From Chitinophagales bacterium (lineage in GTDB: Bacteria > Bacteroidota > Bacteroidia > Chitinophagales > S012-47), in NCBI GenBank assembly GCA_015487695.1, contig WFPF01000122.1:331-64330 (forward strand): a stretch of 64,000 nt of DNA. The letters run 5' to 3'. Positions 40,191-52,311 of this stretch are shown here, piece by piece. Within the stretch, counting starts at the first letter, position 1. The number at the start of each line of letters is the position of its first letter. Made by a program: the position numbers and the translations under genes. The notes below the pieces were generated by a model, which was not told the origin of the DNA, made no database searches, and worked only from the letters and a program-made list of their open reading frames with translations.

Positions 40191-43100
40191 ATGCGTAGAT
40201 TCCTCTTTGCCATCACCTGTTTCTTTTTCACTTTATCCCTTTCTGCACAGGGGCTCTACCGGGCCCTGTCGCTGGATGAGAGGGTGCAGGCAGCTGCAAT
40301 TATTGCAGAGGCGGAGGTAATCCGTTCGGAGCCTGTCCTTCACCCCAACGGCCAGGTGTACACGCACCACCTGCTGCGTGTGACACGGCTTTTCAAAGGG
40401 GCTGCCGAAAGCCGCCTCGAAGTGATTACACTGGGTGGCCGGGCCGGAGGAACACTAATGAAGGTCTTTCCCGCCCTGCAGCTTGAGCCCGGGATGAAGG
40501 GAATTTTCTTCCTAACGCCCGATAATGTGACTCCCCGTTTTCAGGATCGTGCTTACAAGGCCTATGCCGACCGGCAGGGGTTTGTGGCGCGACTTTGGAA
40601 TGGAAAGGCTTTTGACGGTTTGAAGGACTACGGAGTCTATGAGGAGGCGTTTGTGAAACGCCTGAGAGAGGAACAGGGGCTGAGCGTAAAAGTGCTGGCA
40701 AAGCAGCCCGAGCCAATGCCCTCTCTTTCGGCCGTTGTACCTTCTGTCATTTCTTTTTCTCCCGACAGCATCGCAGCCGGGGAATTTCAGATTCTGAGCA
40801 TTCGCGGAGTGGGATTTGGCAGCTATTCAGGGCAGGCCGGTGTGCGCTTTCGCAATGCCGATGACGGGGGGATCTCCTTCGTATCTGCGCCTTCCTCTCA
40901 AATCATTCTGTGGACAGATACACTAATACAGGTCGAAGTGCCTTTCCGGGCCGGCAGCGGCAGTTTCATGGTGGTGGACCAAAACGGAGCCTCGACATTG
41001 TCGAACACCGACCTGCTTATCCGCTATGATATTATTAACCTTCAGACCAGCAGCGGCATTCAGTATTCGAGGCTGGTCGATATCAATGGCCTCGGTGGAC
41101 TGAGTTTCGCGTTCAACACAAATTTTTACAGCAATACGGATGCACGAAATGCCTTCAACAGGGCCCTGGAAAGCTGGCGATGCAATACGATGGTCAATTT
41201 TGCTTCCCTCAGCAATACCACCGACAGCAGTTGCAATTCGCGCAACAACATCAGCGTGGTGGCCTTCGATACCGACTGTCCGCTCGATCCGGGGGTGCTG
41301 GGCCGGGCTTACAGCTATTACACGATCTGCCAGGATGAAGATCCGGAACTGGTGGAAGCAGATATTCTCTTTGATGAGATGCCGGCCAATGGCTGGCACT
41401 TCGGAGCTTCGGCTCCGGTCGGCACTTCTTATGACTTTGAGTCGGTGGCACTTCATGAGCTGGGCCATGCCCACCAAATGGGCCACGTGATTGATGCGAA
41501 TGCAGTCATGCATTATTCCCTGCCGGCAGGTACGGCCCGGAAGACTCCGGATGCCAACGATATTCTGGCAGGCCGGTCGGTGATGACACGCAGTGTCAAG
41601 GACCCCGTTTGCGGATATACCGGGATGCTTGCCCTCACAGCGGGTAATTGTCAGTTTACCATTCCGGTGGCCAGCTTTGATCTTTCTCCCGACAGAGGCT
41701 GCGTGCCTTTCGATGTTCAATTTACAGACGCATCTACTTCCCTGCCTACTTCCTGGGCCTGGGATTTCGACAATGACGGAGTCATAGATGATACCACCCA
41801 GAACCCGGTGCACACCTACAGCACTCCGGGCATTTATTCCGTACGGCTTATCGTGAGCAATGCAAATGGCTCGGATACCCTTACCCGCATCAATGTGATT
41901 CAGGCCTATGCTTCACCGACAGCCGATGCAGGTCCCGATCTTTCCATCTGTCCGGATGGGCGGGCCACAATTGGTGGTGCTCCCACGGGAACTGGCGGAA
42001 CGGGATTTTTACGCTATCAGTGGCTGCCGGCCGAGAGCCTTAACAATGCGGCACTTCCCAACCCCGAGGCAGCTCCGATGAATACCACGGAATATACCGT
42101 GGAAGTGAGCGATGACAATGGCTGCAAAGCGCGGGACTCGATGGTGCTTACCGTCATGCCGGGACCGGTGCTTGATATTGGAAGCGATCGCACGGTATGC
42201 GAAGGCGATACGGTATGGCTTATCAATCGGGCAGGCAATGCAGCCGGAAGCATTTTCCGCTGGAACCCTCCTGAAGGAATTGATGATCCCTCAAACGATA
42301 CAACTTTTATGATTGCGGCCGGGTCTTCTCGTACCCTGACCCTTTCAGCACAGACTCCGAACGGCTGTCAGGCACAGGCCTCCTTTTTGCTGACAATTCA
42401 CCGAAGTCCCGTAGTGGATGCCGGAGAAGATCAGACCGCCTGTGCCGGTACGGGAGTGGAAATAGGGGGGCACCCTTCTGCCTCGGGAGGCTCCGGAGGA
42501 TATACTTATCTCTGGCAGCCCTTTGCAGGATTAAACAATAGCGGAGCGGCCAACCCCATTGCAGACCCTGCGACTACCACTACCTATACGCTGACGGTTT
42601 TCGATGCACTGGGTTGCAGCCGTTCTGATACGGTTCGGGTAGAGGTGGCACCCTCGCCTGTGGCCGATGCCGGGCCGGATCTGGGGCCTGTGTGTGCCGG
42701 CCAGGCACTGAGACTTGGCGGACAGCCTACAGGAAGCGGTGGAACAGGCAATCTCTTCTACACCTGGTTGCCAACGGCCTATCTTGATACCATCAATATT
42801 GCCAATCCCCTGGCTACTCCGGACCAAAGCACCCTTTTTAAGGTGATTGTTGTGGATGCCAATGGATGCCGGGCCGAGGACAGTGTGTATGTAGCGATAT
42901 GGCCCACACCCGTGGCCGATGCAGGCCGCGATACGGTATTTTGCGGACCGGGTAGCCTGATTCTGGGTGGCAGCCCGGCCGGAAGCGGAGGAACAGCTCC
43001 CCTGGCTTATTCCTGGAGCCCCGATTCAGGGCTCAGTCAAAGCAATATTCCGAATCCGCTTGCAAGCCTTTCGGAAAGCACGGATTATACTCTGACGGTG

Positions 43101-44111
43101 AGCGATGCCAATCAGTGTGCCTCATCGGATGTGGTGCATGTGACTGTGCTGCCGGCATTAATTGCGGATGCAGGCGCACAGGATACCCTTTGCTATGGCG
43201 AGTGCAAAAGGCTGGGCGGCAACCCTGTTGCCAGCGGTGGATCGGGCAGTGCCTATGCCTTTGAGTGGAGTGTAGACACAGGAGTTTTTTCTGTCATGGA
43301 AAGCCCCGAAGTATGCCCGGCCAAAACCCTGACCTATAGCCTGACGGTACGCGACCCGGCCGGATGTGAGGCAGGGGATGAAGTGGTGATTCTTATTAAG
43401 AATTACCAGCCCATCGATTTCAGAACGATCGACTCAAGCTATTGCACAAATGACGGATACGATTCGCTGATTGCATTTCCGGTGGGTGGCGATTTCAGTG
43501 GACCGGGCATTCGGGGGAATGGTTTTTATCCTGACGAAGCGGGCACTGGCAAGCATTGGATATTCTATGAGTATATGACGGGCAACGGATGTCTTATCCG
43601 CGATTCTTTCCTGACGGAAGTTCGTCCTTCGCCCGATAAACCCGTGATCGGGCAAAAAGGTGATACGCTTTACACTGCCGATACTTTCTGGAGCTATCAA
43701 TGGCTGTTCAATGGAATAGCCCTGCCCAATACCGACTCATATTTTTATGTGGCTCCCGAAAGCGGGAACTATCAGGTGAAGGTATTTACAGAAGCAGGCT
43801 GTGAGAATGTGTCGGATATCTATGGCTTTTCCGTAGGTATCGAAAAGCGGATCTCCGATCTCTCGGTAGAGCTCTATCCCGTGCCGAATGACGGGCGCTT
43901 TGTACTGCGTCTGAAGGGAAAAGCGTATGCTTCGCTGTCGTTGGAAATTTATGATCTCTCCGGCCGCAAAGTGCTGGACCGCAATGTGCAGATGCGGGGA
44001 CGCAGACTGGATACGGATATTGACATTTCTTCCGTTGCATCGGGTGTCTACCTGCTGAAAATTTCTTCGGGAGAAGGGATGCTGCTCTATAAGTTTGCCG
44101 TGACGAAGTAA
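40191..44111 (+). CDS. T9SS type A cargo: matrixin-like zinc metalloprotease with PKD and tandem Ig-like repeats
   Basis: Signal peptide, HELGHAHQMGH plus Met-turn AVMHY, PKD (WDFDNDG), six ADAG-type repeats, CTD YPVP...IYDLSGR...GVYLLK...KF. Confidence 0.87.
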   Translation: MRRFLFAITCFFFTLSLSAQGLYRALSLDERVQAAAIIAEAEVIRSEPVLHPNGQVYTHHLLRVTRLFKGAAESRLEVITLGGRAGGTLMKVFPALQLEPGMKGIFFLTPDNVTPRFQDRAYKAYADRQGFVARLWNGKAFDGLKDYGVYEEAFVKRLREEQGLSVKVLAKQPEPMPSLSAVVPSVISFSPDSIAAGEFQILSIRGVGFGSYSGQAGVRFRNADDGGISFVSAPSSQIILWTDTLIQVEVPFRAGSGSFMVVDQNGASTLSNTDLLIRYDIINLQTSSGIQYSRLVDINGLGGLSFAFNTNFYSNTDARNAFNRALESWRCNTMVNFASLSNTTDSSCNSRNNISVVAFDTDCPLDPGVLGRAYSYYTICQDEDPELVEADILFDEMPANGWHFGASAPVGTSYDFESVALHELGHAHQMGHVIDANAVMHYSLPAGTARKTPDANDILAGRSVMTRSVKDPVCGYTGMLALTAGNCQFTIPVASFDLSPDRGCVPFDVQFTDASTSLPTSWAWDFDNDGVIDDTTQNPVHTYSTPGIYSVRLIVSNANGSDTLTRINVIQAYASPTADAGPDLSICPDGRATIGGAPTGTGGTGFLRYQWLPAESLNNAALPNPEAAPMNTTEYTVEVSDDNGCKARDSMVLTVMPGPVLDIGSDRTVCEGDTVWLINRAGNAAGSIFRWNPPEGIDDPSNDTTFMIAAGSSRTLTLSAQTPNGCQAQASFLLTIHRSPVVDAGEDQTACAGTGVEIGGHPSASGGSGGYTYLWQPFAGLNNSGAANPIADPATTTTYTLTVFDALGCSRSDTVRVEVAPSPVADAGPDLGPVCAGQALRLGGQPTGSGGTGNLFYTWLPTAYLDTINIANPLATPDQSTLFKVIVVDANGCRAEDSVYVAIWPTPVADAGRDTVFCGPGSLILGGSPAGSGGTAPLAYSWSPDSGLSQSNIPNPLASLSESTDYTLTVSDANQCASSDVVHVTVLPALIADAGAQDTLCYGECKRLGGNPVASGGSGSAYAFEWSVDTGVFSVMESPEVCPAKTLTYSLTVRDPAGCEAGDEVVILIKNYQPIDFRTIDSSYCTNDGYDSLIAFPVGGDFSGPGIRGNGFYPDEAGTGKHWIFYEYMTGNGCLIRDSFLTEVRPSPDKPVIGQKGDTLYTADTFWSYQWLFNGIALPNTDSYFYVAPESGNYQVKVFTEAGCENVSDIYGFSVGIEKRISDLSVELYPVPNDGRFVLRLKGKAYASLSLEIYDLSGRKVLDRNVQMRGRRLDTDIDISSVASGVYLLKISSGEGMLLYKFAVTK
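41910..43400 (+). repeat. Six ~83-aa Ig/PKD-like protein repeats (approximate bounds)
   Basis: Units start ADAGPD, LDIGSD, VDAGED, ADAGPD, ADAGRD, ADAGAQ. Most carry GG.P..SGG, Y.W.P and D.NGC. Confidence 0.8.
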
Positions 44112-44122
44112 TCGCAGGCGGC

Positions 44123-44797
44123 TCACTCCGTTTCGAGATGTCGCAGAATGCGTGCCGGGTTGCCTACTGCCACCACATGATCGGGGAGGTCTTTGACGAC
44201 TACGGCTCCTGATCCGACTATACTGTGTGCACCGATGGAAATCCCGTCATTGATGACGGCTCCGGCCCCGATCGTTGTATGCGCACCGATTTGGCATTTC
44301 CCATTGATGACAGCTCCCGGATTTACACTTACAAAGGCCCCCAATTGGCTATGATGGCCTATGCTGCAATGCCGGTTGAGATACACGAAAGCATCGAGCA
44401 TGGTGTATGGGGCCACTACGACTCCCGGATTAATGATAACCCCGGGCTTTGTACTGACACCCTGGGCAATGTCCGCAAAAGGATGAAGCAGCGTGCCGAA
44501 TTCCGTGTCACTCAACGCAAAGGTATCCTTAAAGTAGCGGTAGATTTTGAACCGGGCTTTGCTGCTCATCGAAGCGGCAAAGAGGATCTCTTCTTGGTCC
44601 CGTTGCCATGAATCGGCAGGGACGATCTGTACAGGCAGTCTCGGATGATCGAAGGGCAGCTGATATTGGCTGTTGTCTTCGGGCGGAAGGTTGGAAATGA
44701 TGCGTACATGGCTATCAGGGCCCACACTTTTGAATATGATATCGAGGATGACAGAGAGAGACGTGTTGTCATGTCCCAGCAGTGCGATTTTTTTCAT
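44123..44797 (-). CDS. PglD/NeuD-like hexapeptide-repeat sugar acyltransferase
   Basis: Rossmann-like N-domain, LLHP, LbH repeats (IGAHTTIGAGAVI, IGAHSIVGSGAVV), VGNPAR. Start probably 44797. Confidence 0.85.
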   Translation of the reverse strand: MKKIALLGHDNTSLSVILDIIFKSVGPDSHVRIISNLPPEDNSQYQLPFDHPRLPVQIVPADSWQRDQEEILFAASMSSKARFKIYRYFKDTFALSDTEFGTLLHPFADIAQGVSTKPGVIINPGVVVAPYTMLDAFVYLNRHCSIGHHSQLGAFVSVNPGAVINGKCQIGAHTTIGAGAVINDGISIGAHSIVGSGAVVVKDLPDHVVAVGNPARILRHLETE

Positions 44798-44849
44798 GGA
44801 GGCGCTTTGTCTGTCCCAAAAGTAAGAAGTGGGATGAATAGCTTTATTT

Positions 44850-46523
44850 TTGAAAGAAAATATCACGGTGCAAAAAAGAAAAAAATCAAGAGAAGAAAGA
44901 GGTCATGCACCGCTTGCAGAGAAAGGAAAGAATACGAAATTGACCTGGTTTCTCCTGGCCTTCACATTGCTTGTGGTATTCTTCATTCGACTAAGGTTGC
45001 TGGATGTTCCGCTGGAGCGGGATGAAGGAGATTATGCAATCAATGCGGCATTGCTGCTGGACGGGCATTCCTTTTCCAGCCCGTTTATCATGAAGCGTTT
45101 CCCCTTCATTTATTACATATATATGCTCTTTATCTCACTTTTCGGACGCAGTGATATAGGTATTCATTTCGGGCTTATGCTTTCGAATCTGGCAAGTGCC
45201 TTTGGAATTTACCTTGTGGGAAGCAGGCTGTGCAACCGCAACAGCGGAATATTGGCCTCCGTATTTTTCCTTTTGATGTCTCTTTCGCCCGATGTCAACG
45301 GACTGGCAGCCAACCGCGAACATTTTCAGCTTCTCTTCCTGGTATATGGAGCCTGGTTTCTTCTGAAAGCAAGGGAACGAAAAAGATATCTGAACTATGC
45401 ACTGGCAGGTTTGCTGATGGGACTTTCTTTTGCCGTGAAGCAGAATGCTCTCTTTTTTATGGCCTGGGGCGGCCTGTGGATACTGGCCGAAGCTTATTAT
45501 TTTCAACGGAGGAAGTGGCAGTCGGCTTGGACTGCTGCGGGTATCTATTCCCTTGCTGCGCTGCTTCCTTTCTTTATCATTTTGATACTCTATAGCTATG
45601 CCGGTGTTTTTGATGCATTCGTAACAAAAACATTCTATTCGAATACCCAATATCTCACCCGTTTAAGTTACCGGGAGGGAGTGCTCAATTTCTTTCATCA
45701 CTTCTCTCCTGTTTTTTATGCCTACACCTTCCTTTTCCTGCTTGCTTTCCTGCCTTTTCTCAGATGGACGAAGGAGAAAAGAGCGCTCAGGACAACGCTT
45801 TTTCTTGTCTCTCTTGCTTTCTTTTCTTTTATAGCGATTGTCCCCGGATGGCATTTTTATCCGCATTATTTTATTTTAATATTGCCCGCAGTCGCACTGC
45901 TGGCAGCCGCAGGTACGCAGGAATTGATCAACTTTTTGGAAGCCAAATGGTCCCGCAGGCAACGGGCGGTTGCCCTTTTGCCGATGCTCTTTGTGCTGCA
46001 GCCTCTCTTTGCGGAGTCCTTTTATTTCTTTAAAGCGGATGCTACGGAGGCCTCACGGGTTACCTATGAATACAATCCTTTCCCCGAGGCAAAAGTCATC
46101 GGCAGGTACATTAAGCGAATAACAAACGACAGTTCATCTATGATGGTGCTGGGCTCCGAGCCTGAGCTCTACTTTTATGCGGAGCGCAGGCCGGCCATAT
46201 CGGCCTATTACATGTATTTTTTGATGAACGGCACGGAACTGGCCCGCCAGCAACAGGAGGAACTGATCAGACAGGCGGAAGAAGAAATGCCCGAGGTAAT
46301 CGTAGTGCTAAATATTTCGAGTTCGTGGGTCGTGCAAGAAAATACCGATCCTCTGCTCTTTGACTGGATTGCTTCCTTTCCTGCAAAGTTTCATTATCGC
46401 ATCGTTGGGATAGCTGATATATTTAAAGACCATACAAACTATGTCACCGGTCCGGCAGCTCAGAACTACAAAACCCGTTCGACCGGTAGTATTGCAATCT
46501 TTAAAAAAATGCAGAAACCATGA
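44850..46523 (+). CDS. GT-C fold (ArnT/PMT-like) polyprenol-phosphate sugar transferase
   Basis: PLERDEG.Y acidic motif after TM1, many TM helices, KQ motif, YPHYF, soluble C-terminal domain. TTG start. Confidence 0.85.
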   Translation: MKENITVQKRKKSREERGHAPLAEKGKNTKLTWFLLAFTLLVVFFIRLRLLDVPLERDEGDYAINAALLLDGHSFSSPFIMKRFPFIYYIYMLFISLFGRSDIGIHFGLMLSNLASAFGIYLVGSRLCNRNSGILASVFFLLMSLSPDVNGLAANREHFQLLFLVYGAWFLLKARERKRYLNYALAGLLMGLSFAVKQNALFFMAWGGLWILAEAYYFQRRKWQSAWTAAGIYSLAALLPFFIILILYSYAGVFDAFVTKTFYSNTQYLTRLSYREGVLNFFHHFSPVFYAYTFLFLLAFLPFLRWTKEKRALRTTLFLVSLAFFSFIAIVPGWHFYPHYFILILPAVALLAAAGTQELINFLEAKWSRRQRAVALLPMLFVLQPLFAESFYFFKADATEASRVTYEYNPFPEAKVIGRYIKRITNDSSSMMVLGSEPELYFYAERRPAISAYYMYFLMNGTELARQQQEELIRQAEEEMPEVIVVLNISSSWVVQENTDPLLFDWIASFPAKFHYRIVGIADIFKDHTNYVTGPAAQNYKTRSTGSIAIFKKMQKP

Positions 46524-47200
46524 GAGTGCTCATCACCCAGAGCAACTACATCCCCTGGAAAGGGTATTTTGATGCCATACGGGCAGCCGATTTCTTTGTG
46601 GTGTACGATGAGGTGCAATATACACGCAGAGACTGGCGCAACCGAAACCGAATAAAAACAGCGGCCGGCCTGAAATGGCTTAGTGTTCCGGTCAGCAACG
46701 ACTACGCCCGGCAGCGGATCAGTGAGGTGAAGATTGGCGGGCAGCGCTGGCTAAGAAAGCATCTCGAAAGCCTGCGCCACAGCTATGGATCTTTGCCTTT
46801 CTATGACGAAGTGATGGGGTTTCTCGCTCCGGCCTATGAAGCGGGTGACGTCTACTTGTCGGAGCTGAATCTTCGCTTGATCAGAGCAATTAACCGCTAT
46901 TTGAAAATCGAAACAGTGCTGCGGCAATCAAGAGAGTTTGAGCTGCTGCCGGGGCGGAGCGAGCGACTTTTGCATATTTGCATGGAGCTGGGGGCTTCCG
47001 AATATCTCAGCGGCCCTTCGGCAGCAGCATATCTGGACGAAGACCTCTTTGCCCGGCAGGGGATAGCGCTTCATTATCTGGATTTTAGCAATTACCCGCA
47101 GTATCCGCAGCTTTATGGTGATTTTGTTCATGAAGTGACAATTCTGGATCTGCTTTTTTCCAAAGGGCCTGAGGCGCTGCAGTTCATGAAAAGATTATAA
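46520..47200 (+). CDS. WbqC family protein
   Basis: QSNYIPWKGYF, DEVQY...WRNRNRIKT, YLSG, YPQL, ILDLLF. Confidence 0.92.
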   Translation: MRVLITQSNYIPWKGYFDAIRAADFFVVYDEVQYTRRDWRNRNRIKTAAGLKWLSVPVSNDYARQRISEVKIGGQRWLRKHLESLRHSYGSLPFYDEVMGFLAPAYEAGDVYLSELNLRLIRAINRYLKIETVLRQSREFELLPGRSERLLHICMELGASEYLSGPSAAAYLDEDLFARQGIALHYLDFSNYPQYPQLYGDFVHEVTILDLLFSKGPEALQFMKRL

Positions 47201-47203
47201 ACG

Positions 47204-48127
47204 ATGAATATGGATTATTCTGTCATTATTCCGGTATACAACAGCAGCCGGTCTTTGCCCGAACTGGCCGCCCGCATCGATGCACAGCTGGGCGGCAAGG
47301 AATCCTCAGGATTTGAAATAATCATGGTGGATGACGCTTCGCCCGATGAATCCAGTTGGGAGACGATTAAAACACTGGCAGCCAGATATCCTTTTTTAAA
47401 GGGCTACCGTCTTCTGCGAAACGAAGGAAAAAACGGTGCCCTGATCTGCGGGATGGATCATGCAAAAGGGGATTATCTGATACTTATGGATGATGACCTG
47501 CAGCACAGGCCCGAGGATTTTCCTGTGCTGATAAAGGAGGGTGAACACGACCTCGTCATTGCCCGCTTTCCGGAGAACAGAAACGGAAGGGTGAAGGACT
47601 GGCTGAGCCGCATGAAAGGGAAACTGGATGAGCGTTTTGCAGGCAAACCCGAAGGCCTGCGCTTCGGGCCCTTTATGATGATGAAAAAAGAGATTGCCAA
47701 TGAGCTGTGCAAGCTGCGCACTCCGTTTCCTTATTTGCCTGCAATGCTTTTTTCACTGACCCGCGATGCGGTCAATGTGAGCGTGCCCCATGACAAAAGA
47801 AGACACGGCAGGTCGCAGTTTACCTTGTACAAGATGCTGAAACTGATGTCAAACCTTCTGATCAATAATACCTCCGTCATGCTGAGAACCGTCTCTGTGG
47901 CCGGTATCGCTTTTTCAATTCTCAGTTTCTTGCTGGCGCTCTATTTTTTGTATAAAAAAATATTTGTGGGTATTCATGTGGCAGGCTGGGCCACCCTGGT
48001 CATTCTGGTATTGTTGATCGGGGGAATCACCCTCTTTTCTCTCGGCATCATTGGAGAATACCTCCTGCGGATCATCAAAGCCCTTGAGCACCGGAGTGCG
48101 TATGTAATTCGTGAGGAGACCGCTTAG
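47204..48127 (+). CDS. GT2 polyprenol-phosphate glycosyltransferase (ArnC/GtrB-like)
   Basis: SVIIPVYN, VDDAS.D, MDDDLQH, R..G.S, two C-terminal TMs, GIIGEY. Confidence 0.9.
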   Translation: MNMDYSVIIPVYNSSRSLPELAARIDAQLGGKESSGFEIIMVDDASPDESSWETIKTLAARYPFLKGYRLLRNEGKNGALICGMDHAKGDYLILMDDDLQHRPEDFPVLIKEGEHDLVIARFPENRNGRVKDWLSRMKGKLDERFAGKPEGLRFGPFMMMKKEIANELCKLRTPFPYLPAMLFSLTRDAVNVSVPHDKRRHGRSQFTLYKMLKLMSNLLINNTSVMLRTVSVAGIAFSILSFLLALYFLYKKIFVGIHVAGWATLVILVLLIGGITLFSLGIIGEYLLRIIKALEHRSAYVIREETA

Positions 48128-48969
48128 CAGCCGTTCCGCTTGTATTGGCTGTTGTAAAAACCTGCCTGCCCCAGCTCCGATGCTTTCATGATTTTTCTTT
48201 CATGTATTTCGGCCAGTTCGTGAATTCGCAGGAGCAGGTCCTTGTTGCTGGCCGGCTTCTTTTTTGCCTTGTCAAAGTAGATATTATCTTCCAGTCCGAC
48301 CCGTACACCCCCTCCCATAGCGATGGCCAGGCTGTTGGCTCCCAGCTGTGCCCGGCCGATGCCTCCGGCCGCCCAGCGGCTCCCTTGCGGCAGATCGCGA
48401 ATGGCGGTACCGAGGTGCAGAAAGTCGAGCTGCAGACCGGCAATATTTCCGAGTATGATGTTGAAATAGAAAGGAGCTTTCAGCAGGGATTTGCGGATGA
48501 GATATTTGGCATAATTTACCATGCCGTGGTCAAAAACCTCAAGTTCGGGCTTCACTCCGAAACGGTTCATTTTTTTGACCAGCCCCACAATGGTTTCGGG
48601 AGCATTGATGCTGGCCTGTCGCGGGAAATTGAGCGAGGAGAGGGTGAGCGAACCCAAGTCGGGCTGAAGCTCCAACACTTCGGAGCGGTGCTCCGTTGAA
48701 GATGTATTGCGTCCGCTGAGCGAAACACCCATGACCAGTTCGGGGCAATGCCTGCGAAGGCCTTCCAGGATCCGTCCATACACTTCTTTTTTATAGGTAG
48801 GCGCTTCGCTTTCTTCTTCACGGGCATGCAAATGAACCATCGTAATGCCCAACTCAAACGCTTCATGAACCTCTTCCACAATCTCATTGACCGAGACCGG
48901 AACATGCGGATTATCGGCTTTGCAGGGGATCATCCCGGTGGGCGTAAAATTGATTATCAAATCCTCCAT
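48124..48969 (-). CDS. DUF849 / BKACE (3-keto-5-aminohexanoate cleavage enzyme family)
   Basis: PTG...K..NP.VP, HLHAR, SLNF, PELEVFD, VRVGLEDN. Confidence 0.9.
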   Translation of the reverse strand: MEDLIINFTPTGMIPCKADNPHVPVSVNEIVEEVHEAFELGITMVHLHAREEESEAPTYKKEVYGRILEGLRRHCPELVMGVSLSGRNTSSTEHRSEVLELQPDLGSLTLSSLNFPRQASINAPETIVGLVKKMNRFGVKPELEVFDHGMVNYAKYLIRKSLLKAPFYFNIILGNIAGLQLDFLHLGTAIRDLPQGSRWAAGGIGRAQLGANSLAIAMGGGVRVGLEDNIYFDKAKKKPASNKDLLLRIHELAEIHERKIMKASELGQAGFYNSQYKRNGC

Positions 48970-49014
48970 AGAAAGAAATTCTTTTTGGGAGCATAAAGCT
49001 ATATATCTCTTACA

Positions 49015-49022
49015 TACCTTTG
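49015..49022 (+). promoter_or_regulatory. -7 promoter element upstream of flippase-wecE
   Basis: TACCTTTG in the divergent gap 48970-49044. Confidence 0.55.
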
Positions 49023-49044
49023 GGGCGATCTCTAAAATTTCTCG

Positions 49045-49980
49045 ATGAAAAAGAGACTTTGGCAGGTGTTTAAAGTCGTTTTTGGTCTGGGGCTGATTGC
49101 CTATTTGCTCTACAGCATCGATCTGCCCGAGATGTGGTCCGAAATGAAAAACGGAGCGCTTATCTGGCTGTTTCCCGCAGCGATGAGCATCGCTTTGCTC
49201 CTGCTTTTTTTGGCTCCCCTGAAATTGTATCCCCTCCTGCAGCGGGCCGGAGATTTCAGGTTCTCAGATGTTTACCGTGCTTCCGTTATCGGACTTTTCT
49301 TCAACAATGTGCTGCCGTCAAGTGTGGGAGGAGATGCTGTGAAGGTGCTTGTGTTGAAGAGACGGAGCGATGTCTCATGGGCAGCTCTGGTTACCGCCTC
49401 CCTGGCCGATCGTTTGATCGGGCTGAGCATTTTGCTGCTGGCAGCGCTCGTTTACCTTCTCTTTAAGCCCATGGAATCGAACCTACACCTTTTCGAAGAT
49501 GCGGCTGAAGGAATGTCGATTGAGCTGATGTGGATCATTGTTTTGGCACTTCTCGTCTTTTTTGTCATTTTCAGAAAAAAGATAAAAGCCTTTCTCCGCC
49601 AGATGTTCGAAGCCGCTTCGCAGTATGATTTGCGATCGCTCTCGCTGGCCGTCTTCTTTGCGCTCATCTTTCAGGGTTTGCGGATCGTCAGCCTCTATTT
49701 TTACTTGCGTTTTTATGATTATCGCATGGCCCTGCCCGACCTTCTTTTTGTGATCAGCGTGGTATCCGTAGTATCGATGATTCCCATCAGTGTCGGGGCG
49801 CTCGGTGTGCGTGAAAATGTGCTGACCTGGAGTCTGGCACTGTATGGAGTTCCGTTGAGTGTTTCGGTGGGGATGGCCCTCATCAGCAGAGTCGTTTTCG
49901 TTCTGCTCAGCCTGATCGGTGCAATATATTATTTTCAGGAAGGACAATTGCAAAAAAGCAAAGGGGATGATTCCGTTTAA
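49045..49980 (+). CDS. Lysylphosphatidylglycerol-synthase TM domain (UPF0104) putative flippase
   Basis: FFNNVLPSSVGGD, DR, PISVGALGVRE, multiple TM helices. Confidence 0.88.
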   Translation: MKKRLWQVFKVVFGLGLIAYLLYSIDLPEMWSEMKNGALIWLFPAAMSIALLLLFLAPLKLYPLLQRAGDFRFSDVYRASVIGLFFNNVLPSSVGGDAVKVLVLKRRSDVSWAALVTASLADRLIGLSILLLAALVYLLFKPMESNLHLFEDAAEGMSIELMWIIVLALLVFFVIFRKKIKAFLRQMFEAASQYDLRSLSLAVFFALIFQGLRIVSLYFYLRFYDYRMALPDLLFVISVVSVVSMIPISVGALGVRENVLTWSLALYGVPLSVSVGMALISRVVFVLLSLIGAIYYFQEGQLQKSKGDDSV

Positions 49981-51100
49981 CAAGCCCTACGTATCAGGCA
50001 GTGAACTGGCCAATATTCGTCAGGCAGTGGAGTACGGATGGCTGGCCGGAAATGGTCGCTTTACTAAAGCATGTGAGGGTTTTTTAGAGGAGCGCTATGG
50101 GGTTGCGAGGGCCATGCTCACACACTCTGCTACGGCAGCCCTGGAGATGATGGCCATACTTCTAGACCTCAAAGCGGGAGATGAAGTCATTGTTCCTTCT
50201 TTTACTTTTATAACTACTGCCAATGCCTTTGCTCTCCTCGGAGCAAAGATCGTATTTGCCGACAGTCTGCCCGGGCATCCCAATATGGACACAGAGGGGG
50301 TAGAAGAGCTTATCACTCCGCGCACCCGTGCGCTGGTGGCCATGCACTATGCGGGGGATATCTGTGATATGCCGGCTCTGGAGTGTTTGTGTCGTGAGCG
50401 GGGGATTGTGCTGCTCGAAGATGCGGCCATGGCCATCGAATCATCGCTGGAAGGGCAAAAGGCCGGAAGTTTTGGGGATATGGCGGTGTTTTCTTTCCAC
50501 GAGACAAAGAATATTATTTCCGGTGAAGGAGGAGCGCTGCTCATCAACCGGGAGAAATGGATTGAAAGGGCAGAGATTATCAGAGAGAAAGGGAGCAACC
50601 GGGCGGCTTTTTTCAGGGGAGAGTGCGACAAATACTCCTGGGTAGACCTCGGGTCGTCATTTTTGCCTTCCGAGCTGCAGGCGGCTTACCTCTTTGCCCA
50701 ACTGGAGGCCATGGACGAAATCCAGGCGATGAGAAAAGCCATCTGGACACGATACCACGAGGGATTTTCCGGCCTGGCAGCCAAGGGATACCCGGAGCGG
50801 CCGGTAAGCCTTCCGGGCCGGGAGATAAATTACCACTCCTATTATCTCATTTGCCGGAGCCTCGAAGAGCGGAGCAGGCTCATCTCATTTTTGCACGAGC
50901 ACGGCATTCAGGCTGTGTTTCACTACCAGTCGCTGGATCAAAGTCCTTTTGGCGTTAAATTCGGGCAGGGTGCAGCTCCCCTGCCGCATGCGGCCCGCTA
51001 TTCCGACAGACTCCTGCGCCTGCCCTTTTACAATGCACTGAGCCGGGAAGAGCAGGACCACGTGATAGCGTCAGTATGTGCATTCTATGACGAAGCCTGA
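49967..51100 (+). CDS. wecE: dTDP-4-amino-4,6-dideoxygalactose transaminase (WecE/RffA)
   Basis: MIPFNKPY, G.G.FT..C, VPSFTF, EDAA, FSFHETKN (PLP Lys), REKGSNR..FFRG..DKYSW. Confidence 0.88.
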   Translation: MIPFNKPYVSGSELANIRQAVEYGWLAGNGRFTKACEGFLEERYGVARAMLTHSATAALEMMAILLDLKAGDEVIVPSFTFITTANAFALLGAKIVFADSLPGHPNMDTEGVEELITPRTRALVAMHYAGDICDMPALECLCRERGIVLLEDAAMAIESSLEGQKAGSFGDMAVFSFHETKNIISGEGGALLINREKWIERAEIIREKGSNRAAFFRGECDKYSWVDLGSSFLPSELQAAYLFAQLEAMDEIQAMRKAIWTRYHEGFSGLAAKGYPERPVSLPGREINYHSYYLICRSLEERSRLISFLHEHGIQAVFHYQSLDQSPFGVKFGQGAAPLPHAARYSDRLLRLPFYNALSREEQDHVIASVCAFYDEA

Positions 51101-51120: not shown

Positions 51121-52311
51121 CTATACCTGGTTCTCCTGATTGTCGAGATTGACGACCGGATGGCGTTCAAAAGGACGTTTCGGATCAAAATTGAGCCTCA
51201 GAGTGGCATACTTGCGGCTGATGGTAGCCCCTACCTTGGCTCCGATGGCCAGCATCTTCGGGTTGAAGTCTCCGATCCAGGTCATCACCAGTTCGTCATA
51301 CAGATTTTCATCTACGATGGTCAGGCTTCCGTACCGGGCGATGGCCATGTCTACACCTTTACGCTGCCATTTTCTTACTACACCGAAAACGAGGCCATAG
51401 AGTATACGGGGCTTGTGAAATGTTTTGTAGTATAGAAACTTGATCTTGCCCCAGGCATTCAGATTTCCATTTACATGTTTGAATATCTGATTGAGTTCGG
51501 GCAGGCTGACGAAAAAGCCAATGGGCTCATCATCATGGTAGGCAAAGATGACCACCCGCGGATCCATTACGGCCTTCATCGATTTGATGATTTTATAACC
51601 GGCTTCGGGCTTCATCTTTTTGAAGCCGGGCATGCCGCCCCAGGCATCATTGTACACGGTCATAAAATCCTCAGCGATCTTTTTTATTGAAAGGCCCCTC
51701 ACATCGCGCACTTCGATATTGTATCGCTTCATGATTATTTCCCCCAGCCGCATCTGCTCGGGGGTGGCGGGCGTATTTTTGACCGGCCGTTTCAGTATGT
51801 GTTGCTCATAAAAGATCCGGAAACCGTAGTTCTCGAGCAATTCGCGATAGTAGGGCGGATGAAGGTCCATTCCGTAGGTATTCTCTTCCTTAAAGTTTTC
51901 AATCAGCAAGCCCCAGAACATATTTTTTTCTCCGAAATTGATGGGGCCGTCCATGCCTTCCATTCCCCGGTCAAGGAGCCACTTTTTAGCTGCATCCAGC
52001 AGCGTATTGGCTGCTTCCTGATCATTGATGCAGTCAAAGAATCCCATGCCACCCACAGGGTATTGAAGCGGGTTGGGATATTTCTCATTGACAAAGGCTG
52101 CAATGCGGCCAATGACCTTGCCGTCCGGCCCGGTGAGCAACCAGCGGATGGCTTCTCCGTGCTCAAAAGTTTTGTTCCGTTTTGGGTCAAAGACCTTCTC
52201 CACGTCCTGCCGGAGAGCCGGAATCCAATTTGGATCATTTTTATGGATGATTCGTGGAAAATCAATCCACTGTTTGATCTGTTTTCGATCCTTTACTTCT
52301 ATCAGTTGCAT
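51121..52311 (-). CDS. YghO-like tandem GNAT protein (possible bacterial ceramide synthase-like)
   Basis: DFP...DPNW.P.L, GRIAAF, GFFDCI, GP, YN.AW, PELN, GV...Q.KG. Confidence 0.65.
   Translation of the reverse strand: MQLIEVKDRKQIKQWIDFPRIIHKNDPNWIPALRQDVEKVFDPKRNKTFEHGEAIRWLLTGPDGKVIGRIAAFVNEKYPNPLQYPVGGMGFFDCINDQEAANTLLDAAKKWLLDRGMEGMDGPINFGEKNMFWGLLIENFKEENTYGMDLHPPYYRELLENYGFRIFYEQHILKRPVKNTPATPEQMRLGEIIMKRYNIEVRDVRGLSIKKIAEDFMTVYNDAWGGMPGFKKMKPEAGYKIIKSMKAVMDPRVVIFAYHDDEPIGFFVSLPELNQIFKHVNGNLNAWGKIKFLYYKTFHKPRILYGLVFGVVRKWQRKGVDMAIARYGSLTIVDENLYDELVMTWIGDFNPKMLAIGAKVGATISRKYATLRLNFDPKRPFERHPVVNLDNQENQV

Follow-up and report, generated by a model that had tools for sequence, protein, structure and literature searches.

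The Gtr (GtrA/B/X) and Arn (ArnB/C/E-F/T) systems share an aminotransferase-GT2-flippase-GT-C logic, and the anthrose operon provides an example of a glycan locus with its own acyl-CoA supply. Here, we analyzed a 64,000-nt stretch of DNA from a vent-dwelling Chitinophagales bacterium (hereafter the window), in which seven intact open reading frames (ORFs) at 44123..51100 would bring these two arrangements together. We propose, with moderate confidence, that a Gtr/Arn-type module is joined in this locus to a two-gene cassette, consisting of a BKACE/DUF849 enzyme and a left-handed beta-helix (LbH) acyltransferase, which would put a small dicarboxylic acyl group (best guess oxalyl) on an amino sugar. 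The seven genes are as follows.

44123..44797 (-), LbH acyltransferase (Hexapep; likelier start ATG at 44797, the longest ORF reaching to 44866)
44850..46523 (+), GT-C membrane glycosyltransferase (PMT_2, E 5e-12)
46520..47200 (+), WbqC-family protein (PF08889, 255 bits)
47204..48127 (+), ArnC/GtrB-type GT2 glycosyltransferase (PF00535; best NCBIfam model ArnC PRK10714, 139 bits, below cut-off)
48124..48969 (-), BKACE/DUF849 enzyme (PF05853, 243 bits; 281 aa)
49045..49980 (+), UPF0104/LPG_synthase_TM membrane protein (PF03706, 124 bits; TIGR00374 above cut-off)
49919..51100 (+), WecE-type transaminase (NF008687 and TIGR02379 both passed; likelier start ATG at 49968)

Comparison with described systems

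Judged by profile scores, the window BKACE is a PF05853 member, and the locus is not Kce, G4, ObcA or Arn proper. The sister group of the enzyme, the G4 3-oxoadipate:acetyl-CoA acetyltransferase (NF053568; closest structures 3NO5, 3CHV and 3FA5), has the same fold (TM 0.88-0.91), the same metal and catalytic residues and the same Arg four residues past the active-site Ser. However, the two are only ~35% identical, the window BKACE scores 205.2 bits against the G4 cut-off of 350 (a pca-linked control scores 502), and the G4 pocket differs at the M-x-P, Ser85, Thr109, Ser120 and Asn170 signature of the window's branch. The contexts differ as well, as G4 enzymes are found with pca and CoA-transferase genes, whereas the window branch lies beside acyltransferases. 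Kce of lysine fermentation likewise has its family, fold and catalytic core in common with the window BKACE, but the latter reaches 217.5 of the 382 bits of the Kce cut-off (NF052387), and carries Ile14 (Ile or Val in its branch) where Kce has Glu14, which we take to be the amine-binding residue.

Two further DUF849-type proteins are relevant. ObcA/Obc1 of Burkholderia (PDB 4NNA-C, 5IKY) has a DUF849-like barrel and is reported to condense oxaloacetate with acetyl-CoA (PMC5028181); it has at least 540 aa and releases free oxalate, whereas the window enzyme is proposed to feed an acyltransferase. A close link between the two was looked for and not found (~20% identity, E 2e-7, TM 0.75). BsfD of flavophos biosynthesis (PDB 9ZSC), as far as the available text describes it (10.64898/2026.01.15.699783), is similar to the window BKACE in being a DUF849 enzyme of an anabolic cluster, and differs in its phosphonate substrate, in a ~20-residue insertion that the window BKACE lacks and in having no acyl-CoA product. 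Together with BKACE groups G6/G7, BsfD indicates that DUF849 members can depart from the canonical conversion of a beta-keto acid and acetyl-CoA into an acyl-CoA and acetoacetate.

As for the glycan side, the window has the aminotransferase, GT2, flippase and GT-C families of Gtr/Arn, but its GT2 scores 139 against the ArnC cut-off of 529, no ArnA/ArnD family is found among the seven genes, and the locus has no formyltransferase or deformylase, a UPF0104 flippase and an added acyl-donor cassette. The LbH protein resembles the N-acetyltransferases PglD, PerB and VioB in fold and in its catalytic His and Asn, and is distinguished from them by an Arg after the Asn and by having no acidic residues next to the His. 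In the window locus the BKACE would supply the acyl-CoA, a role taken by a crotonase in the anthrose operon.

A distinct branch of DUF849

The PF05853 match of the BKACE (gathering cut-off 24.8 bits) covers residues 4-266, and the protein falls below every named NCBIfam cut-off, including that of the dioxohexanoate enzyme (126/430). The HxH, PELE and RVGLED motifs, which an earlier note on this DNA had reported as retained, are all present, and H46, H48, E227, R223, D228 and E144 align with metal and catalytic residues of Kce and 3NO5. The predicted model (pLDDT 92) matches 3NO5 with a TM score of 0.91, and the enzyme is the sole BKACE of its genome.

The earlier note had also suggested placing the enzyme in a DUF849 tree. 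In our FastTree analysis, which had 95 sequences, the divergent L068 as root and a single G4 representative, the BKACE falls in one branch of non-catabolic type (support 0.991), sister to the pca-linked 3-oxoadipate enzyme; the tree excluded partial and duplicate sequences, most of the redundant controls and every metagenome locus. Sixteen active-site and pocket positions are invariant in the 121 closest proteins (121/121), and the branch signature comprises M-x-P, Ser85, Thr109, Ser120 and Asn170, with Ser85 and Ser120 standing where the G4 enzyme has Gly and Tyr. Arg87, which is likewise invariant in 121/121, corresponds in the alignment to an Arg in both 3NO5 and the pca-linked L123. A near-identical signature was observed in GNAT fusions and in two plasmid copies.

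The branch is large, with 7,656 of 8,000 scored proteins at E<=1e-60, and is spread over Bacteroidota, Planctomycetota, Chloroflexota, Omnitrophota, Nitrospirota and one archaeon. A protein atlas offered nothing beyond generic BKACE clusters. By tree position and active-site signature, the window BKACE belongs to a large uncharacterised DUF849 branch and not to the catabolic type. No branch match was found in phages or (by blastn) in E. coli genomes, and one viral contig matched; on this contig, the branch member (L120:6001-6807, 54% identity) has no LbH, GNAT or glycan neighbour that could be recognised.

Genomic neighbourhood of the branch

For the analysis of context, 73 genome loci were gathered (68 + 5, with two duplicates out), of which 72 were counted after L068 (27% identity) had been dropped. 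An LbH gene lies within 500 bp of the BKACE in 31/72 loci and within 6 kb in 39/72, and an LbH or GNAT-like gene is found within 6 kb in 65/72, as well as in 40 of the 41 loci that have at least 5 kb on both flanks. By comparison, other BKACE branches of the same order, which include loci beside lysine-fermentation genes, gave no LbH or GNAT-like neighbour in 13 control loci and DegT in two; the control neighbours identified by Pfam (29 genes, 12/13 loci) are mainly enoyl-CoA hydratases, short-chain dehydrogenases/reductases, acyl-CoA dehydrogenases, thioesterases and biotin carboxylase. Near the branch BKACE, DegT was counted in 28 of the 72 loci, any glycan gene in 37, ArnC-like GT2 in six, WbqC and GT-C in five each and UPF0104 in one. 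Metagenome loci, many of them short, showed an LbH or GNAT-like gene in 49/80, with a few well-flanked ones lacking it (L133, L143).

Among 400 genomes sampled evenly from the phylum, the branch was present in 15, and all 17 non-self matches (E<=1e-55) were either LbH-adjacent within 1.5 kb (5) or GNAT-fused (12, two of them confirmed by Pfam and the others by BLAST); one of the five LbH-adjacent matches, G091, also occurs in the 300-genome order sample described below. Among long homologues, fusions were found in 8/10, namely BKACE-LbH (2), BKACE-DegT (4) and GNAT-BKACE (2).

The earlier note had regarded its proposal as refutable by closest homologues in catabolic operons; in fact, these homologues adjoin acyltransferases and amino-sugar genes. 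Among the genes that it had suggested checking for co-occurrence with the BKACE, LbH recurs, WbqC and GT-C are each near the BKACE in 5/72 loci, and WbqC, which it had named with LbH as a possible acyltransferase partner, was rejected on this count. The seven genes were likewise rejected as a widely conserved unit, since the flippase is present in 1/72 loci and 34 of 38 other genomes with the GT-C lack this BKACE.

Several lineages have contexts of their own. In one Bacteroidota family (L275-L286), fusions of GNAT and BKACE occur in either domain order (10 N-terminal, 2 C-terminal), and the three fusion loci checked adjoin an ATP-grasp ligase, not glycan genes. In Dehalococcoidia-like loci (L012, L028, L033, L034, L040, L062, L064, L066), the BKACE is followed by a methyltransferase and faces several GNAT-like genes. 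Robiginitalea-like loci (L026, L038, L041, L043, L049) have the BKACE between HMG-CoA (3-hydroxy-3-methylglutaryl-CoA) lyase and pyrD, and most of them also contain a GNAT-like gene; two more (L143, L150) have no GNAT-like gene. In the archaeal locus L046:2482-4913 (Nitrosopumilus), the BKACE is accompanied by a nucleotidyltransferase-like gene and an LbH of the Asn-Arg type.

The LbH acyltransferase as partner

The window LbH has an N-terminal alpha/beta domain followed by the LbH domain. Its best NCBIfam model is TIGR03570 (131.1 bits, below the cut-off of 160.8), its best PDB matches are PerB and VioB, with His148 aligning with PerB His141, and its predicted model is nearest in fold to PglB, PerB and VioB. 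N141 and H148, seven residues apart, lie within the motifs Asn141-Arg142 and Gly147-His148-His149, and in the available text of PMC9271549 Asn and His form the conserved active-site pair of such LbH N-acyltransferases.

The branch BKACE occurs in seven of 300 genomes of the order at 54-87% identity, the next match being at 34%. When the window LbH was compared with the same 300 genomes, matches were obtained in 57 other genomes, but the seven best non-self matches, which are the only full-length ones, sit in six of the seven branch-BKACE genomes; in the seventh, the BKACE lies on a 4,150-bp contig and no LbH match was found. Arg directly follows the Asn in 21/30 BKACE-adjacent LbH proteins (27/30 if either the Asn column or the next is allowed), and G/S-H-H is present at the catalytic His in 22/30, whereas the 23 next-best LbH from genomes without the branch have neither feature (0/23 for both). 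The Arg was also present in 5/5 LbH of the phylum sample.

On this reciprocal profile and Arg signature, the LbH is the partner gene of the BKACE, which leaves standing only the LbH half of the pairing proposed earlier. The LbH likely takes the BKACE product as its acyl donor, and we hold with good confidence that the BKACE supplies acyl-CoA to it. The gained Arg and the lost flanking carboxylates are compatible with an anionic acyl group.

Nature of the acyl group

Both enzymes suggest that the acyl group is probably anionic. BKACE group G4 takes anionic substrates, turning over beta-ketoadipate and beta-ketoglutarate in both directions (PMC4922564), and the Arg four residues past the active-site Ser may play an anion-binding role in the window enzyme. 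No keto-acid-forming gene was seen to recur across the glycan, GNAT-fusion and flavin-like clusters, and a single signature across such unrelated pathways, without a recurrent keto-acid-forming neighbour, points to a housekeeping anionic beta-keto acid. Oxaloacetate would be the obvious candidate, and the canonical BKACE reaction on it would yield oxalyl-CoA, which, unlike malonyl-CoA and succinyl-CoA, is not otherwise at hand. The structural relative ObcA offers a precedent for this substrate, and the exchange of the G4 Gly and Tyr for Ser85 and Ser120 counts in the same direction, as does the lack of any match to family-I CoA transferase (PF01144) or lysine 2,3-aminomutase in the 98.7% complete genome. 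We therefore put oxalyl forward as a tentative assignment.

Branch members with the same active-site signature are also found in flavin-like clusters on a Salmonella plasmid (L121:6486-12853, NZ_CP034710) and a Streptomyces plasmid (L122:5738-13691, NZ_CP115301), together with GTP cyclohydrolase II, a gamma-glutamyltransferase (GGT)-family protein, a methyltransferase and an extra riboflavin synthase; RibD is additionally encoded in the former and RosB in the latter. The GGT neighbours were examined as possible oxamate amidohydrolases, and NCBIfam gave only generic gamma-glutamyltransferase models. A table in the accessible part of PMC10366380 includes oxalamic-acid and 6,7-dioxo ribityl-pyrimidine derivatives as synthetic inhibitors of lumazine/riboflavin synthase, so that an oxalyl donor would fit the product of these plasmid clusters, a circumstantial point. 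In the window's genome, an HMG-CoA-lyase-like gene was observed (contig C5), with no match to family-I CoA transferase.

The lipid-carrier module

The GT2, flippase and GT-C are encoded together in the window, as in three-component systems of the Gtr/Arn type. WecE passes NF008687 (491.6 > 375) and TIGR02379 (439.2 > 434.85) and by these scores is of the dTDP-4-amino-4,6-dideoxygalactose transaminase type; an RmlB-like gene was found elsewhere in the genome by local profile (contig C135). The GT2 has hydrophobic segments at its C-terminus, the GT-C has at least six hydrophobic segments by a crude window measure and no PDB sequence match, and the UPF0104 protein is likely the flippase of the lipid-linked sugar. 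The WbqC protein, which gave no significant PDB match, is possibly a glycyl or aminoacyl transferase, a role that we assume for the family.

In Chitinophagales loci L005, L101 and L106, DegT, GT2 and GT-C genes are directly followed by BKACE-LbH without WbqC. FdtA is added in L005 and L106, and in L106 a GtrA protein, which had no match in the window's genome, takes the place of the UPF0104 flippase. This comparison indicates that the cassette persists through changes in the amino sugar (3- or 4-amino), in the flippase and in WbqC. Of 300 other genomes of the order, 38 have a GT-C homologue, only four of them together with the branch BKACE, and 13 regions from branch-free genomes mostly showed a lone GT-C. 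A BKACE-free module (L265:3422-8730, G207:C18) consists of DegT, an ArnC-like GT2, a short and different LbH, two FdtA isomerases and a GT-C, and would provide a natural control carrying a plain N-acetyl 3-amino sugar. The lipid-carrier module is thus separate from the cassette, commoner and ordinary in itself, and WbqC and UPF0104 are local, lineage-specific add-ons. With these as add-ons and the GT-C mostly found without the BKACE, the locus is best described as a Gtr/Arn-type module that carries an acyl-donor cassette as a plug-in.

Proposed pathway and alternatives

The genes, families, residues, co-occurrence, fusions and signatures described above were observed directly, and the chemistry that we infer from them would run as follows. 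RmlA/RmlB, encoded elsewhere, would form dTDP-4-keto-6-deoxyglucose, from which WecE would produce dTDP-4-amino-4,6-dideoxygalactose. The BKACE would convert oxaloacetate and acetyl-CoA into oxalyl-CoA (best guess) and acetoacetate, and the Arg-bearing LbH would N-acylate the WecE sugar, acting on the sugar itself or on a glycyl group that WbqC had attached beforehand. The acylated sugar would then be loaded on polyprenol phosphate by the GT2, flipped by the UPF0104 protein and transferred by the GT-C to an envelope acceptor. We consider it possible, with less assurance than for oxalyl in this locus, that the DUF849 branch family-wide is an oxaloacetate:acetyl-CoA C-acetyltransferase making oxalyl-CoA for N-oxalylation of amino sugars and small molecules by LbH, GNAT or other enzymes, in which case the window product would be an envelope 4-oxalamido-4,6-dideoxyhexose or its oxalyl-glycyl form. 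The earlier proposal that a BKACE had been repurposed to supply an acyl-CoA for an amino sugar is accordingly retained in its non-catabolic context and LbH partner, and dropped with respect to WbqC and the seven-gene unit.

A number of observations weigh against this pathway. Just 37/72 branch loci have a glycan gene nearby, L133, L143 and L150 have no acyltransferase neighbour, and in the window itself the LbH belongs to a different transcription unit, 3.3 kb away from the BKACE. The neighbour profiles were derived from the same loci in which they were then counted, so that detection there was favoured; two of the GNAT-like groups have weak Pfam support (E 1.7e-4 to 0.075), and kin among the loci are not independent, the 12 GNAT fusions representing one family. 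Three other DegT genes in the genome could make the true acceptor. As for oxalyl, ObcA is a distant relative, and oxaloacetate does not appear in the reproduced BKACE substrate table (PMC4922564 supplement S1), which leaves no precedent within canonical BKACEs. Moreover, the lack of a family-I CoA transferase match leaves the acetoacetate by-product without an explained fate. Our literature search found no assayed enzyme of this branch and, among the matches listed (mostly on plant oxalyldiaminopropionic acid, ODAP), no bacterial N-oxalyl sugar. Finally, the divergence of BsfD from BKACE chemistry within a biosynthetic cluster counts on the same side.

Alternatives differ from the proposed pathway in the acyl group, in the reaction or in the connection between the two gene sets. 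Malonyl and succinyl amino sugars occur in bacterial glycans, and the same pathway might use malonyl-, succinyl- or another acyl-CoA made from a G4-type or some other beta-keto acid, in keeping with the 3-oxoadipate sister group and the two-way turnover by G4 enzymes. In addition, an unassigned '232' sugar of Ignavibacteria glycoproteins would agree in nominal mass with an N-malonyl dideoxy-aminohexose, in an anammox glycoproteomics preprint whose available part gives nominal masses only (10.1101/2020.12.03.409086). However, malonyl-CoA and succinyl-CoA already come from central metabolism, so that there would be little gain from a dedicated enzyme, the genome gave no match at E<=1e-15 to any pca-locus protein apart from the BKACE, and the NF053568 cut-off is missed by a wide margin (205 < 350); we regard a different acyl group as unlikely. 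A more radical departure would be a BsfD-like reaction, in which acetyl-CoA is condensed with a keto acid or an attached acyl group and the substituent is built or extended with no acyl-CoA released. Clusters L121, L122 and L044, which have a GGT-family gene only and neither LbH nor GNAT, would suit such chemistry, as would Phe146, invariant in the branch, given that BsfD has Phe at the canonical Tyr position in the available text. Yet Phe stands at the same column in the G4 and lysine-fermentation sequences of our alignment, and hence Phe146 does not discriminate, whereas an acyl-CoA product would predict the tight linkage and the fusions seen with acyl-CoA-dependent transferases, which have two unrelated folds. 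This reaction appears improbable here.

Alternatively, two separate modules may simply adjoin, with WecE-WbqC-GT2-flippase-GT-C making a glycyl amino sugar and BKACE-LbH acylating another amino sugar or metabolite. The 34 genomes that have the GT-C and lack the branch BKACE, the candidacy of WbqC itself as the N-substituting enzyme, the other DegT loci of the genome and the division of the genes into four transcription units would all agree with this, but BKACE-LbH stays beside DegT-GT2-GT-C in other lineages (L004/L005, L101, L106) despite rearrangement and loss of WbqC, and in the window the LbH and BKACE genes are interleaved with those of the module. We judge such a coincidence of modules to be slightly less probable again than the BsfD-like reaction. 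That a catabolic BKACE is here by chance seems very improbable: most characterised BKACEs are catabolic, and the enzyme adjoins HMG-CoA lyase in one Flavobacteriaceae lineage, but the neighbour counts, the fusions, the reciprocal LbH profile, the lack of aminomutase and CoA-transferase matches in the genome and the failed Kce cut-off (217 < 382) stand against it, and the co-occurrence tests have largely refuted it.

Literature and implications

With most subscription journals outside the search, no report of BKACE/DUF849 in glycan synthesis was found among the literature matches listed, and no characterised carrier organism with a solved glycan was found. The available text of the NetSyn preprint gives BKACE contexts as valine/leucine, carnitine, aromatic and others, a glycan context not being named there, and two Vibrio papers, in their available parts, name the enzyme in gene lists only. 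Given this scope of the search, novelty is provisional; relative to the literature found, the BKACE-LbH acyl-donor cassette in a glycan locus and the oxalyl decoration would be new.

The proposal offers a testable function for a large DUF849 branch of a family that has been screened at length. Two signatures, Ser85/Arg87/Ser120 in the BKACE and Asn-Arg...Gly-His-His in the LbH, may flag glycan loci whose N-acyl group is not acetyl and is probably anionic. If it is indeed oxalyl here, the locus would represent a new route to oxalyl-CoA and a new bacterial sugar substituent. The formula of that residue would equal that of an N-acetylhexosaminuronic acid (HexNAcA, 217.059 Da), from which mass spectrometry cannot distinguish it, so that glycoproteomics by this method would have misnamed it.

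Arrangement of the locus

The earlier description of seven adjoining, mixed-strand genes with minimal gaps agrees with our ORF and profile analyses. Gaps between the longest ORFs range from -62 to +75 bp, and since LbH and BKACE are read from the minus strand and the remaining five genes from the plus strand, the locus must comprise at least four transcription units and is not a single operon. The gene order is complete in L126, a metagenome relative (86% identical), and partly visible in L002, L267 and (65% identity) L003, and the stretch is covered joint-free by contigs of three vent metagenome runs from two studies, no one contig spanning all of it; thus, the order does not stem from misassembly. 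Among named relatives, a Chitinophagales metagenome-assembled genome is the closest (88% identity), and the G+C content of the locus (48-51%) is the same as that of the window. Scans for promoters (4 vs 6.8 in shuffles) and terminators (12 vs 9.6) were not above shuffled sequence. No lysine-fermentation or carnitine family appeared in Pfam scans of 24 + 9 long window ORFs up to 57 kb, consistent with their reported absence.

On the WecE side, a 396-aa ORF at 51121-52311 (-) converges on WecE and occupies the same place in L002 and L126; it has no Pfam or NCBIfam match even at E 0.1, and a GNAT-like stretch was noticed by eye only. On the other side, a gene at 40191-44111 (+) converging on the LbH encodes a protein of 1306 aa that combines a peptidase M10-like domain with PKD repeats and a type IX secretion system (T9SS) sorting tail, and is kept within the genus (L267).

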